From an uncultured Hyphomicrobiales bacterium (GTDB lineage Bacteria; Pseudomonadota; Alphaproteobacteria; Rhizobiales; Xanthobacteraceae): DNA of 31,967 nt. The notes under the pieces are model-generated. The model saw only the letters and a program-made list of their open reading frames with translations. It was not told where the DNA came from and did not search any database. The stretch lies in assembly GCA_964449645.1 (NCBI GenBank), contig CAYVBN010000353.1:1-31967 (forward strand), given 5' to 3'. Shown in pieces: positions 12,375 to 19,521 of the stretch (position 1 is its first letter; every line of letters begins with the position of its first letter). The translations under genes and the position numbers were made by a program.

Positions 12375-12758
12375 GTGCCCGACCGAGGCAAGAAGCGAGG
12401 CTGGAGCCCATTGCGGCGCATCACCGCCTGGGTCGTTGCCTATGCGCTTGTCCTCCACGCCATCCTCGGACTGGCGCCGCTCCACCACGAGGGCGGCCAC
12501 GCCCTCGCAACGGAGTTCTGCGCGGGCACCAGCGGACCCGGCACATCCGGCCACAGCGGCCAGTCGGGGCATTCCGGAAGCTGCTGCGACCTTTGCCTCG
12601 CCTGCGGTTGCGCGGCGTTCGTCGCTCCCGATGCTGTTCGTGCTACATCCGAGCCTTCGGACCCGGATCGCATTCGATGGTCGTCTCTGCATGACGTCGG
12701 GCGGTATCTCCCCGGACTGTTCAAGGAACAAGCCCGAGCACCTCCGCTGACGGCCTGA
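12375..12758 (+). CDS. DUF2946-family leader protein (CruR/CutF-like) with C-terminal RAPP motif
   Basis: GTG 12375 with GGAGG at 12364-68. Basic N-terminus, TM segment ITAWVVAYALVLHAILGL, EFC, CCDLCLACGC, and the end QARAPPLTA. Confidence 0.85.
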   Translation: MPDRGKKRGWSPLRRITAWVVAYALVLHAILGLAPLHHEGGHALATEFCAGTSGPGTSGHSGQSGHSGSCCDLCLACGCAAFVAPDAVRATSEPSDPDRIRWSSLHDVGRYLPGLFKEQARAPPLTA

Positions 12759-12810
12759 CATCGGCGGCTCGCCCGCCCCATTCGCCGTCTCACGCCATCG
12801 GCAGCGGAGG
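12741..12810 (+). promoter_or_regulatory. Predicted SD-sequestering mRNA structure between the DUF2946 leader and the next gene
   Basis: CCTCCGCTG (12741-49; the Pro-Pro-Leu codons) is the exact reverse complement of CAGCGGAGG (12802-10), which contains the SD of ATG 12816. Confidence 0.7.
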
Positions 12811-12815
12811 ACTTC

Positions 12816-13805
12816 ATGTCCATTCGTACGCTCCGCGCAGTCCTGCCGGGACTTGCGCTGATACTGGTTCCAAGCGGAATCCAAGCCCACGAGATCGTGG
12901 GCAAGAGATTCTTTCCGGCCACGCTCGCGATCGACGATCCCGGGGTCAACGACGAACTCGCCTTCCCGACCATCTCCGTCTTCAAGAACGAGGACGATCC
13001 TTCGGCTCGCGAGTTGGACGTCTCGGGAGAGTTCTCGAAACGCATCACCGAAGACTTCGCGGTTTCGTTCGAGCCCACCTGGACTCACCTCCGCGCTCCG
13101 GGCGGGCCGAACGGGACCGACGCATCGGGCTTCCAGAATCTCGAAACGACCTTCAAGTATCGCCTTTATAAAAATCCGACGCACGAGTTCGTGCTTTCGG
13201 CCGGCCTCAACGTCGAGTGGGGCGGCAGCGGCGCTCAGCAGGTCGGAGCCGAAAGCTTCACCACCTACACGCCAACGGTCTTTTTCGGCAAAGGCCTCGG
13301 CGACCTGCCGGAGACGCTGAACTGGGCCCGCCCGTTCGCGATCACCGGTCAGGTCGGCTATGCGATCCCGGGATCGAGATCGAGCACCACGTTCGATCCC
13401 GACACGGGCGATCTCGACTTCGAGCAGCACCCCGATGTCCTGGTCTGGGGCGCATCGCTCCAGTACAGCCTGCCCTATCTGAACGCCTCGGTGGTCGATC
13501 TCGGGCTGCCGGACTTCGTCAATCGGCTGATCCCGATCGTCGAGGTTGCGCTGCAGACGCCTGTCGCCAACACTTTGACCTCGGGCACGCTCACCACCGG
13601 AACGGTCAATCCCGGCGTGCTCTGGGTCGGCGACACTTACCAGGTCGGGCTCGAAGCGATGATCCCGATCAACCGGGCGAGCGGGACCAGCGTAGGCGCC
13701 ATCGCCCAGATCCATTTTTATCTCGACGACATCTTCCCCCATTCGATCGGCCGGCCGATCTTCGCCGTGTCCGACAGCACAGGGAGGCCGAGCTTCGGCA
13801 ACTGA
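12816..13805 (+). CDS. Uncharacterised exported protein, probable outer-membrane beta-barrel with mature N-terminal His
   Basis: Signal peptide ending GIQA|HEIVG. Alternating amphipathic strands such as LDVSGEFSKRIT, FAVSFEPTWTH, LETTFKYRLY, VWGASLQYS and YQVGLEAMIP. Confidence 0.7.
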   Translation: MSIRTLRAVLPGLALILVPSGIQAHEIVGKRFFPATLAIDDPGVNDELAFPTISVFKNEDDPSARELDVSGEFSKRITEDFAVSFEPTWTHLRAPGGPNGTDASGFQNLETTFKYRLYKNPTHEFVLSAGLNVEWGGSGAQQVGAESFTTYTPTVFFGKGLGDLPETLNWARPFAITGQVGYAIPGSRSSTTFDPDTGDLDFEQHPDVLVWGASLQYSLPYLNASVVDLGLPDFVNRLIPIVEVALQTPVANTLTSGTLTTGTVNPGVLWVGDTYQVGLEAMIPINRASGTSVGAIAQIHFYLDDIFPHSIGRPIFAVSDSTGRPSFGN

Positions 13806-16923: not shown

Positions 16924-17451
16924 TCAGTGCCCCGGCATGTTGCCCATGCTGCCCATGCCCTGCATGCCGGGTTTGGCGGGCGCCTGCGAGTTCTTCGGAC
17001 TTCCGCCGATCCCCTCGACCTCGTATTCGACGTCGACGCTGCCGGCCTTCTCGAATTTCAGCGTGCCCTTGATGTGCTGCCCTTTCTCGAGCGGCTGTTT
17101 CAAGCCCACGAACATGATGTGGTAGGAGCTGTTCGGCCCGAGCTCGACCGTTTCGCCGGGCTTGATTTCGAGACCGCCGGAGACCGGCCGCATCTTCATG
17201 ACGCCGCCGTCCATCTTCATCTCGTGCACCTCGAAACGCTGGGCGACGGCGGACGTGCCGCCGATCAGGCGATCCGGTTCGGTCCCCGAATTGGTGATCT
17301 TCATATATCCGGCCCCGACGCTTGCACCTTTCGGCGTGGCGCGCGACCAGGGGTGAGCGATTTCCAGAGGCCCGACCTTGTATCCCTGGGCGGATGCTGC
17401 GGTCGCGCCGAGCGCGAGCGCTGCCGCGAGAATCACAGTTGCGAATTTCAT
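16924..17451 (-). CDS. Periplasmic Cu(I) chaperone PCuAC
   Basis: ATG 17451 (MKFATVILAAALALGATAASA). HPWSRATP, GAGYMKITN and HEMKMDGGVMKMR...HIM (H-x-M...M...HxM) motifs, plus a Met-rich tail. Confidence 0.93.
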   Translation of the reverse strand: MKFATVILAAALALGATAASAQGYKVGPLEIAHPWSRATPKGASVGAGYMKITNSGTEPDRLIGGTSAVAQRFEVHEMKMDGGVMKMRPVSGGLEIKPGETVELGPNSSYHIMFVGLKQPLEKGQHIKGTLKFEKAGSVDVEYEVEGIGGSPKNSQAPAKPGMQGMGSMGNMPGH

Positions 17452-17458
17452 GTCGTTC

Positions 17459-17555
17459 GATCCCAATGTGAGCCGCCGTGCGCGGCGGCTGGCCTGAACA
17501 GGAGTTGACGTCTGCTTCAGGCGAGCGCAGGCGGGCCGCGCGCCGCATTGGGCTC
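17459..17555 (-). promoter_or_regulatory. Predicted structured leader junction sequestering the PCuAC ribosome-binding region
   Basis: On the minus strand, GAG-CCCAATG-CGG (17555-43) can pair with TCA-CATTGGG-ATC (17471-59). This encloses GCCTGAA/TTCAGGC and AGCCGCCG/CGGCGGCT hairpins. Confidence 0.5.
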
Positions 17556-17888
17556 CCGGCGTGCGGCCTGTCCAAGCGTCCCGGAGAGCACCTCGGGCCG
17601 CAGGACAGCGGAGTGCGGCGTCCGGACGACCGCGGGCGCTGGAGCGGATACGGGCGCGAGCCCGCCCGCGCACATTGGCATGGGACAGAGAAGGCACGCG
17701 TGTTCGACCGGATGGACGCGCCCAGGCGATCCGTCGGACTGCGGACCGAGGTTCGCGGTGCACAAGATGGTGAGCGCGCCGGGAACGGCCGCTTGCGCCA
17801 TCTGGAACGCCCCCAGCGACACCTGGAGCGCCAGCACGTAACAGAGGGCAAGCGCAACCGCGTTCGAGAGAGGCCGACGGGCTGTCAT
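17517..17888 (-). CDS. DUF2946-family leader protein with C-terminal RGPP motif
   Basis: N-terminal TM/signal (VALALCYVLALQVSLG), LTILC, HACLLCPMPMC and the end NAARGPPALA. It lies 65 nt upstream of PCuAC. Confidence 0.82.
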   Translation of the reverse strand: MTARRPLSNAVALALCYVLALQVSLGAFQMAQAAVPGALTILCTANLGPQSDGSPGRVHPVEHACLLCPMPMCAGGLAPVSAPAPAVVRTPHSAVLRPEVLSGTLGQAARREPNAARGPPALA

Positions 17889-17973: not shown

Positions 17974-19521
17974 TCAGTCCCAGTCCCAAGGAGGATAGCG
18001 CCGCTCGAGTTGGTATTGCTCGAGGAAGCACCAGAAGAACTCCGACAGGGGAGATACGGCGAAGCCCCGCGCCCGGTTGGAAGCGGCGACCAGGTAGAGG
18101 ATCCGCTGGTGCTCGAACGTCCGCCGCCAATTCTTCGTCAGCGACAGCCTGGGATCGAACAGATCGAGAGGATCGCCCCCGATCCCGCCGATTTCCAGGA
18201 TGGTAAAATCCTCCCCGCGCGCCAGCGCATCGAGCGAGCGGAAGCGGAGCTTGAACCGGCCGTAGTGAAACTCCGGCAGGTTGCGGGCGATAGCGTCGAG
18301 CTTCGCCTCGAGCTCCGGGGTCAGGCAGCCGGAGCCGTCCTGCGCAGAGCGGTCGGGCGCATCGTGGAGCACCAGCGCAAGAACCTGCCCGCGCGCTTCG
18401 CCGGGACAGCGCGCGTACAGCACGGTCGCCAATCCGGAGCCGGGCGCGTGCGCCTGCAGCATCAGCTTGCTGCCGGCGGGAAAGGCCGCCAAATAGGCCT
18501 GCAGCGCGGCGCGATCCTCGATGACCCGCACGCAACGGCCGTGCGCGCCCATATCGGGCTTTGCGACCAGCGGAAATGCGATCTGCTCCGTTTCGAGCAA
18601 TTGCAACGCGCGGTCCACGTCGAGCGCAAGCGTGGACGGATCGGCCCGGCGCCGCAGCACGACGAAATCGACGATCGAGCCGCGCATGTCGGCGGGCACC
18701 GCCAGGAGCCGCTCGCTCTTCGAATCCGCCCACAGGCCGCCGACCGGAAGCATCGGATTGGCGGCACTCGGCAGAGTGAAGGAACGATAGGCGACAGCAA
18801 GCCGGATCCAGTAAAACAGGACCGGCAGACGCAGGAGCCATGCAGGAACATGATGATGCGCCGCGAACGCGCCGGGGCTGCCGGAGATCGGACGTGGACT
18901 GTGCAATTTCGCACGGCCGGTCGCGCCCTCATCGTTGTCCGGCGGAGTCCTGTCGGTGAACGCCAGCACGCGTTCGCGCACGAACCCGACCGCCGCGAGC
19001 GCACCGAGCAGCGTCGGCCATGCCCACACGCCGAGGCGGTCGTCGAGCGCATCGCCGAAAACCGTGACCAGATAGAGGATGGGCGGCAGGTAGATCGCCG
19101 AGACCAGGAGGCTGGCCGCCGTGAAGCGGACGAGCGATACGCGCGCCCAGCCGCAGGCCACGAAGGCGACGAACACCAATCCGGGCACCAGCCGGCACAG
19201 GGCGACAAGCTCGAAGACGTTTCGCTTGAGCATATCGCCGAACCGGCAGACACGCTCGTCGACCGCGAGCGTTCGCAGCCAAGGCAAGGAGCGCGCTCCG
19301 GCGCCGACCGCATAGAGCGCGAAGTCGCTCACGACCATGCCGCCGTAAATGCTGCCCACCACCATGCCGGCGGGCATCAGATCGTTGACGATGATGTAGC
19401 CGCCCAGAACGATCGCCAGATCTTCGTGCGCGAACGGTAGCGCAACGAGCGAGACCACCTTGGCGAGCCAGGCAAGGTCGAAGCCCACCAGCTTGTGCAA
19501 CGCGGCCACGAAAGTGCCCAC
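17974..19521 (-). CDS. DedA/VTT membrane domain fused to an ATP-grasp-like domain
   Basis: N-terminal FAHEDLAIVLGG...SDFALYAVG...CRLVPGL (DedA). C-terminal FPLVAKPDMGAHGRCV...GRFKLRF...ILEIGG (ATP-grasp-like). Confidence 0.75.
   Translation of the reverse strand: MGTFVAALHKLVGFDLAWLAKVVSLVALPFAHEDLAIVLGGYIIVNDLMPAGMVVGSIYGGMVVSDFALYAVGAGARSLPWLRTLAVDERVCRFGDMLKRNVFELVALCRLVPGLVFVAFVACGWARVSLVRFTAASLLVSAIYLPPILYLVTVFGDALDDRLGVWAWPTLLGALAAVGFVRERVLAFTDRTPPDNDEGATGRAKLHSPRPISGSPGAFAAHHHVPAWLLRLPVLFYWIRLAVAYRSFTLPSAANPMLPVGGLWADSKSERLLAVPADMRGSIVDFVVLRRRADPSTLALDVDRALQLLETEQIAFPLVAKPDMGAHGRCVRVIEDRAALQAYLAAFPAGSKLMLQAHAPGSGLATVLYARCPGEARGQVLALVLHDAPDRSAQDGSGCLTPELEAKLDAIARNLPEFHYGRFKLRFRSLDALARGEDFTILEIGGIGGDPLDLFDPRLSLTKNWRRTFEHQRILYLVAASNRARGFAVSPLSEFFWCFLEQYQLERRYPPWDWD

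Follow-up and report, generated by a model that had tools for sequence, protein, structure and literature searches.

A putative copper-sensing arrest leader in front of a PCuAC gene and the possible routes from ribosome arrest to gene expression

How does the arrest of a ribosome on a small leader peptide reach the gene that follows? In CruR, arrest occurs at an RAPP motif, copper sensed by a CxxC motif relieves the arrest, and Rho then ends transcription ahead of the gene that follows (PMC9426467). In CutF, stalling is prolonged by copper, and a stem-loop that masks the cutO Shine-Dalgarno sequence (SD) opens (PMC9973294; bioRxiv 10.1101/2025.02.05.636593). The question is raised again by a locus of an uncultured Hyphomicrobiales bacterium (assembly GCA_964449645.1, contig CAYVBN010000353.1), of which a stretch of 31,967 nucleotides (nt), here called the window, was analyzed. 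On its minus strand, an open reading frame (ORF) of 123 amino acids (aa) plus TGA (leader 2; 17517-17888) is separated by a 65-nt spacer from a gene on the same strand that encodes a PCuAC periplasmic copper chaperone (16924-17451; PF04314, E 3.9e-38), the presumed regulated target. Leader 2 is very probably a copper-sensing arrest leader that acts in cis on PCuAC. The best explanation overall, and a reasonably probable one, is that a diverged CruR/CutF (DUF2946) leader relays its arrest to PCuAC by a CruR-like route. An earlier interpretation of the DNA letters, the sequence-only reading, had proposed that the stalled ribosome instead melts a long-range RNA helix and thereby frees the PCuAC ribosome-binding site (RBS).

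Leader 2 has the parts of a copper-sensing arrest leader. A hydrophobic segment at residues ~10-33 (AVALALCYVLALQVSLGAFQMAQA; 17790-17861) ends in AQA and is a putative signal peptide or membrane anchor, judged by eye from the translation without a dedicated signal-peptide predictor. It is followed by a putative copper-binding cluster, H63-A-C65-L-L-C68-P-M-P-M-C73 (17670-17702), which contains a CxxC motif and a third cysteine. The C-terminal order is CLLC, 48 residues, RGPP, ALA and stop, and the RGPP motif (R117-G-P-P120, encoded by CGC GGC CCG CCT; 17529-17540) matches the arrest motif of the family. CxxC is the motif that defines the DUF2946/CruR family (PMC9426467). RAPP and RGPP are the two most robust arrest motifs, and upstream ORFs that carry them are enriched ahead of PCu(A)C (PMC12992588). 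In ApcA, ApdA, ApdP and CruR, the arrested ribosome has the third motif codon in its P site and the fourth motif codon in its A site, and CruR arrest was itself mapped by toeprinting in vitro (PMC12992588). By analogy, a ribosome arrested on leader 2 should hold the Pro119 codon (17534-17532) in its P site and the Pro120 codon in its A site. Signed positions below are counted from this arrested P site.

A PCuAC protein scan provided 74 genomic and 80 metagenomic relative loci, mostly from Xanthobacteraceae and other Hyphomicrobiales. An upstream ORF that ends in R[AG]PP with a tail of 1-5 residues is present at 90 of 155 loci, the window included. The motif is RAPP in 78 of these leaders and RGPP in 12, and the tail has three residues in 47 and two residues in 38. 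An alignment of 71 PCuAC-linked leaders shows R117, P119, P120 and C43 to be invariant and C65 to be nearly invariant, with ALxAAYxxALQALL as the consensus of the hydrophobic segment. By contrast with the frequency of comparable leaders at PCuAC loci, leader 2 is nearly invisible to gene catalogues, with one matching cluster among 5.8 billion proteins. The contig of that single protein cluster is 99.8% identical to the window and carries no informative substitution, and the eight soil or plant metagenome runs that match the leader-PCuAC region contain no variants there.

The same alignment bears on an explanation that dispenses with a regulatory relay. The ORF could encode a functional small periplasmic or membrane copper-binding protein that is co-expressed with PCuAC, in which case RGPP would only slow translation of the last codons and the hairpins described below would be stabilizing or spacer structures. 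CutF was initially taken for a chaperone (noted in PMC9426467), and the PCuAC SD, while weak, is unmasked, with an RBS predicted to be open with or without arrest. However, R-x-P-P and its distance of 1-5 residues from the stop codon are constant across leaders that are otherwise 17-36% identical. Ordinary proteomes show a strong exclusion of RAPP-like motifs (PMC12992588), and neither CruR nor CutF can be detected as a protein, both acting only in cis (PMC9426467, PMC9973294). An ORF without a relay is therefore very unlikely. Control of PCuAC in cis by an arrest leader, as the sequence-only reading had claimed, is well founded given the CruR/CutF features, the invariance of R117, P119 and P120, and the dependence of the published family mechanisms on arrest (PMC9426467, PMC9973294, PMC12992588), whereas the helix it chose as the switch is unsupported.

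Membership of the family is suggested by profile comparisons. DUF2946 (PF11162) is the sole Pfam match to leader 2, at a sub-threshold score (12.7 vs 23.7 bits, E 0.23), and the alignment is full length, from leader residues 13-120 to profile positions 3-117 of 117. PF11162 is matched at E<=0.01 by 29 of the 71 PCuAC-linked relatives. The window contains a second such ORF, leader 1, on the plus strand, which runs CCDLCLAC, 46 residues, RAPP, LTA and stop, ends at 12758 and, at 23.8 bits, reaches the DUF2946 cut-off of 23.7. With hhalign, leader 1 matches a profile built from the 71 PCuAC-linked leaders at a probability of 96.7%. The gap between CxxC and the arrest motif is 48 residues in leader 2, 47 in its ortholog L001 and 46 in leader 1. 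Leaders 1 and 2 thus appear to be diverged paralogues of one family and not independent solutions, one of the two possibilities raised earlier on account of their unrelated RNA sequences.

If leader 2 arrests its ribosome, the RNA that follows may indicate how the arrest is passed on. The spacer folds into two local hairpins, both of which the earlier reading had described and both of which are present in every minimum free energy (MFE) fold run on the locus. The stop-codon hairpin, H1 (17492-17522, minus strand), pairs GCCUGAA (17522-17516) with UUCAGGC (17498-17492) and has a CAG/CUG extension. H2 (17471-17490, minus strand) is an 8-base-pair GC hairpin, AGCCGCCG-cgca-CGGCGGCT, with a CGCA loop, located 1 nt past H1 and 2 nt ahead of the sequence CAUUGGG discussed below. 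The 5' arm of H1 begins at +12 from the arrested P site. Duplex RNA is known from studies of the ribosomal helicase to meet the mRNA entry channel around +12. Orthologs of the locus fall into three lineages, namely the window together with L155, a metagenome-assembled genome (MAG) that is 99.8% identical to it, L001/L156, and L157/L158. All H1 pairs are kept in every ortholog; H1 is lengthened to 9-10 base pairs in L001 and L157, and this extension contains a compensatory U:A vs C:G change between the two. A GC hairpin of a different sequence occupies the place of H2 in L001. An H2 can be drawn by eye in L157, where the MFE fold instead pairs that stretch with the start region. Most related spacers carry a GC hairpin just upstream of the SD, and the window contains a single copy of H2.

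Neither H1 nor H2 touches the SD in the folds. The 3' partner of H1 (UUCAGGCC; UCAGGC) sits ~40 nt upstream of the AUG in the window and in the orthologs and is not an SD. The idea that UUCAGGCC serves as the SD of a hidden start codon was rejected, as there are no start codons within range. A switch of three elements was also considered, with the 3' arm of H1, once freed, re-pairing with H2 or with the RBS; no complementarity for it was found, and the predicted accessibility of the RBS was unchanged. A search of Rfam returned no family match. This lineage has kept H1 as a ribosome-sensed helix but has uncoupled it from the ribosome-binding site.

The arrangement differs at most related loci. 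Anti-SD potential was scored by pairing 10-nt windows with the SD window of each locus, with all loci aligned on the arrested P site. The pairing energy has a minimum at +6..+12, with a mean of -7.9 kcal/mol against a background near -4. The best SD partner lies between -9 and stop+3, and so under the arrested ribosome, in 49 of 80 non-redundant loci. Among relatives, the anti-SD is mostly found toward the leading edge of that ribosome. These SD duplexes change in sequence from locus to locus yet stay complementary (CCGUCCUGAC/GUCAGGACGG, UCUCCUGACC/GGUCAGGAGA and others). Judged by these partners, a CutF-type design is common in front of PCuAC. The predicted fold of one clade, clade A (RAPP-I-x-S-stop; 22 sequences, e.g., L012 and L140), is a four-way junction. 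In it, GCGCA of the Arg-Ala codons (-5..-1) pairs with UGCGC, formed by the AUG and second codon of PCuAC, and UCCUGA, formed by the last leader codon and the stop (+12..+17), pairs with UCAGGA of the SD, with two hairpins in between. Because of these two pairings, the SD and the AUG of clade A are both hidden by the stretch that an arrested ribosome would occupy.

In clade B (RAPP-A-A/V-stop; e.g., L030, L031, L038 and L024), the tail and stop codon, for example GCGGCCUG, complement CAGGCCGC, which is the 5' arm of the spacer GC hairpin. This suggests mutually exclusive pairings as in an attenuator, although chance is possible given the GC-rich sequences. RNAalifold gave no consensus for the 27 sequences of clade B because the alignment is poor. 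Clade B spacers also share a C/A/U-rich, G-poor motif (GUCAAC, CAUCAC or CGUCAAUUCAUC) with the H1 loops of the window (17499-17515, minus strand), L001 and L157; the motif could be an ancestral remnant or a contact for a protein or for Rho. A blastn search with the 241-nt region found no match among the 154 relative loci, and the spacer is too diverged for nucleotide alignment outside the three ortholog lineages.

Could the SD in the window be masked by a different partner? The sequence-only reading named CCCAAUG (17546-17552; -18..-12), located in the Pro-Asn-Ala codons before RGPP, and CAUUGGG(A) (17461-17468; 3' arm 17468-17462). All of the elements it listed (CCCAATG, CATTGGG, GGGA, the flanking pairs and both hairpins) are present on the minus strand where it had placed them. 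CATTGGG lies 11-17 nt ahead of the PCuAC ATG (17451) and covers the only SD-like sequence, a weak GGGA (17464-17461) at 9 nt before the AUG. Flanking GA..UC pairs extend the helix beyond one mismatch, and the full duplex has an energy of -12.1 kcal/mol. It was proposed that the helix closes a four-way junction that hides the weak SD, and that a ribosome arrested at RGPP, by partly covering the 5' arm, opens the helix and makes the PCuAC RBS available. The match is not a common one: of dinucleotide-shuffled versions of the upstream 65 nt, 1.8% pair with the SD window at -12.1 kcal/mol or better, a share that falls to 0.4% if only -24..-1 is allowed, and an equal strength is reached by 7.5% of the real upstream regions of 80 related loci. 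In addition, nothing else upstream at this locus pairs better with the SD window than CCCAAUG. The match is nevertheless only suggestive and not compelling, because the reader was free to choose any complement to the ribosome-binding site.

The folding results argue against the helix as the switch. In a 192-nt context each pair of the helix has a probability of ~1e-5, and forcing the helix costs +6.8 kcal/mol; in a longer context its probability is at most 0.012. A competing hairpin in the coding region (GGCCGC.CGCCG-loop-CGGCG.GCGGCC; 17534-17568, minus strand) is in the MFE fold of every context that includes it. The 3' arm of this hairpin consists of the Ala-Ala-Arg-Gly codons, and CCCAAUG is held in its loop. 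When the RNA starts no further upstream than -30 and the competing hairpin is thus deprived of its 5' arm, the long-range helix is dominant (0.55-0.99) and closes a four-way junction that resembles the conserved junction of clade A. Within these models, the long-range helix is a legitimate alternative fold and not the predicted ground state, and the folding check suggested along with it ended with no long-range helix in the full-length ensemble. Conservation points the same way. The 5' arm is CCGAACG in both other ortholog lineages, through the synonymous changes CCC>CCG (Pro) and AAT>AAC (Asn), and their 3' arm reads CAUCCAGG, with CAUCCAGGA in the orthologs at the place of CAUUGGG(A). Five of the seven pairs are broken, and left uncompensated, in every other distinct ortholog sequence. 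The window is also the sole locus of the 80 with its best anti-SD at the trailing (5') edge of the arrested ribosome. In an equilibrium model, accessibility of the RBS is the same free and arrested (0.63/0.63 in the window, 0.54/0.53 in L001 and a mean of 0.44/0.46 over 44 loci). Release of the SD by melting of this helix is thus unlikely, and the 7-base-pair helix would be at most a lineage-specific add-on.

The effect of a ribosome on the helix depends on where the ribosome ends. The footprint boundaries used here were taken from general knowledge, and multibranch folding energies are approximate. A footprint boundary at -15 or further upstream abolishes the helix, as melting by the arrested ribosome would have it. 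In contrast, a 5' boundary at -12 or nearer raises the helix probability to 0.66-0.99 and lowers the accessibility of the SD zone from 0.48 to 0.33, because the ribosome takes away the competing hairpin. For the 5' arm at -18..-12, breakage or promotion of the helix by arrest thus depends on the place of this boundary. In a scan of ribosome positions, the helix is restricted to P sites near -39..-33 and at +3. In 30S-mRNA structures, the mRNA contacts the subunit to about -15, a contact that would block 3-4 of the seven helix pairs.

These results raise the alternative of an inverse logic, in which the arrested ribosome takes the 3' arm of the competing hairpin, leaves -18..-12 free, promotes the SD-masking helix and turns PCuAC translation off. 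The rise of the helix with a boundary at -12 or nearer, and likewise with the P site at +3, would be in line with such a logic, which would be physiologically sensible if copper promoted arrest, as it does in CutF (PMC9973294). It is highly improbable, however, as it relies on the same unconserved helix and is opposed by a 30S contact at about -15, and in the two family members that have been studied the downstream gene is switched on by arrest (PMC9426467, PMC9973294). A more general form is that the anti-SD has shifted here from the leading to the trailing edge, where it competes with a coding hairpin whose 3' arm is made of the arrest codons. The RBS would then be closed by a ribosome that stands ~35-40 nt upstream or has only just passed the arrest site, and be open otherwise, and arrest could close the PCuAC site depending on the true 5' footprint. 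Such a shift is distinctly unlikely. Closure of the site by arrest would be an inverted form of the family switch.

A CruR-like relay is favored because no conserved structure masks the SD and the RBS is predicted to be open regardless of arrest. In the proposed mechanism, the exported or membrane-anchored leader would sense copper while nascent, via the CxxC cluster, and would arrest its own ribosome on the C-terminal RGPP. The arrested ribosome would cover roughly -15..+15, and its leading edge would abut H1 at +12, where clade A has its SD-masking helix. The arrested state would raise PCuAC expression in cis: the arrested lead ribosome would keep the transcript coupled and protected, and transcription would run through the structured spacer into PCuAC. 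Release triggered by copper would uncouple the transcript, and Rho or polarity could then act. Copper would be expected to switch PCuAC off, as with CruR, because PCuAC serves copper acquisition.

Base composition and signal scans are compatible with this relay, if weakly. Over 74 loci, the C>G bias is +0.055 in the linker and +0.070 in the spacer, compared to -0.017 in PCuAC, and C-G in the window is +0.04 to +0.12 in 78-nt windows between 17807 and 17548. Scans for a sigma-70-like promoter and for an intrinsic terminator between the leader and PCuAC found none, so a separate promoter, which would have spoken against the original proposal, did not appear there. Two runs of unknown kind supplied contigs that were mere fragments. 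A 250-nt contig of one such run, X20, covers 17275-17524 without differences and includes the 5' end of PCuAC, the entire spacer and the leader stop. Should the X20 run be RNA, the spacer and PCuAC share a transcript.

Several observations weigh against a diverged CruR/CutF leader with a CruR-like relay. The leader alone misses the Pfam DUF2946 threshold, and its gap of 48 residues between CxxC and RGPP is near, but slightly beyond, the published family range. The C>G bias is mild and may merely reflect Pro/Ala-rich coding. The 65-nt spacer is folded into H1 and H2, in contrast to the 162 nt of CruR with an unstructured, C-rich rut region, and because the spacer is short and structured, the Rho route is not obviously favored. 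Clade A leaders clearly use SD masking, which is the norm among the nearest PCuAC-linked relatives. The coincidence of the long-range helix is rarer than chance (~2-8%), and the helix is dominant once the competing hairpin is held open. Finally, arrest, the copper response and co-transcription at this locus are all inferred.

The surroundings of the gene pair are stable across the orthologs. The order common to the ortholog loci is a VTT-domain gene, the leader, PCuAC and a CMD-family gene on the opposite strand. The PCuAC start (ATG at 17451) is identical in the NCBI call for the 99.8%-identical MAG. The gene upstream of the leader (17974-19521, minus strand), whose synteny extends to all three ortholog lineages, codes for a VTT/DedA-like N-terminal domain followed by a long extension at the C terminus and ends 85 nt ahead of the leader ATG. 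It may form one transcription unit or functional module with the leader. Leader 1 precedes a gene for a 329-aa protein, followed by copC and copD-cytochrome c. In leader 1 (12735-12818, plus strand), the Pro-Pro-Leu codons CCUCCGCUG exactly complement CAGCGGAGG over 9 nt, and CAGCGGAGG holds the SD of the gene after leader 1; the MFE fold of 12700-12835, from the single sequence, lacks the CCUCCGCUG/CAGCGGAGG helix.

An RAPP or RGPP leader ahead of PCuAC is already a bioinformatic class in the literature, and PCuAC is named as a typical downstream gene in three surveys (PMC9426467, PMC9973294, PMC12992588). The locus adds a diverged member of the RGPP type to the CruR/CutF family. To our knowledge, no other leaders than those of this family form a class in which the nascent chain senses a metal, and we know of no earlier description of the rewiring of the stop-codon helix in this lineage or of the four-way junction of clade A. 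Both are modest additions. The comparison over ~80 PCuAC-linked loci is a more useful result than the single locus. It indicates a rewiring, within one gene pair, of the way in which arrest is passed to the downstream gene, because the window and the two other ortholog lineages keep H1 uncoupled from the SD and most loci place an anti-SD under the ribosome. The PCuAC-linked loci are a natural set for asking whether translational relays of the CutF type and transcriptional relays of the CruR type interconvert. For the proposed long-range helix, the value of the analysis is mostly corrective, in that the helix is not to be taken as a mechanism without mutational proof.

Comparison with known systems places leader 2 closest to copper-responsive leaders. 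Like SecM, ApdA and ApdP, which monitor Sec or YidC function, it carries a motif of the arrest class near the C terminus of a small exported protein, and in those systems the arrested ribosome remodels the downstream mRNA (PMC7897499, PMC10951233, PMC10987492). SecM, ApdA and ApdP, however, sense translocation and control sec or yidC genes, whereas leader 2 has a putative metal-binding Cys cluster and a copper chaperone as its presumed target. Clade A leaders share with the window the gene pair, a three-residue tail, two spacer hairpins and a helix with its 5' arm at +12; the +12 helix of clade A (UCCUGA/UCAGGA) masks the SD, whereas its equivalent in the window, H1, masks nothing.

CutF of Rhodobacter capsulatus is likewise a cis-acting leader with a Sec signal, a Cys motif and a proline-rich stalling motif at the C terminus, and its spacer is under 100 nt and contains stem-loops. 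PCuAC-like chaperones are among the three most frequent downstream neighbors in the CutF survey (PMC9973294). Unlike leader 2, CutF carries a CxxxC motif and an EF-P-sensitive motif of the PPP type, and it controls a detoxifying oxidase that is induced by copper. A defined anti-SD masks the cutO SD, whereas no conserved structure does so at the locus described here.

CruR (Bp2923 of Bordetella pertussis) differs from leader 2 in its RAPP motif and spacing of 45 residues (RGPP and 48 in leader 2), in its 162-nt spacer with an unstructured rut region (65 nt and two hairpins) and in the TonB-dependent transporter downstream (here PCuAC), and leader 2 falls below the Pfam DUF2946 threshold. The two are alike in being small leaders with an N-terminal export signal, a CxxC motif, R-x-P-P three residues before the stop and a C>G-biased 3' half. 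CruR heads an operon for copper acquisition, as leader 2 would, and the genes listed for CruR operons include PCuAC. As with CruR, copper is expected to relieve the arrest of leader 2 and to turn the downstream gene off.

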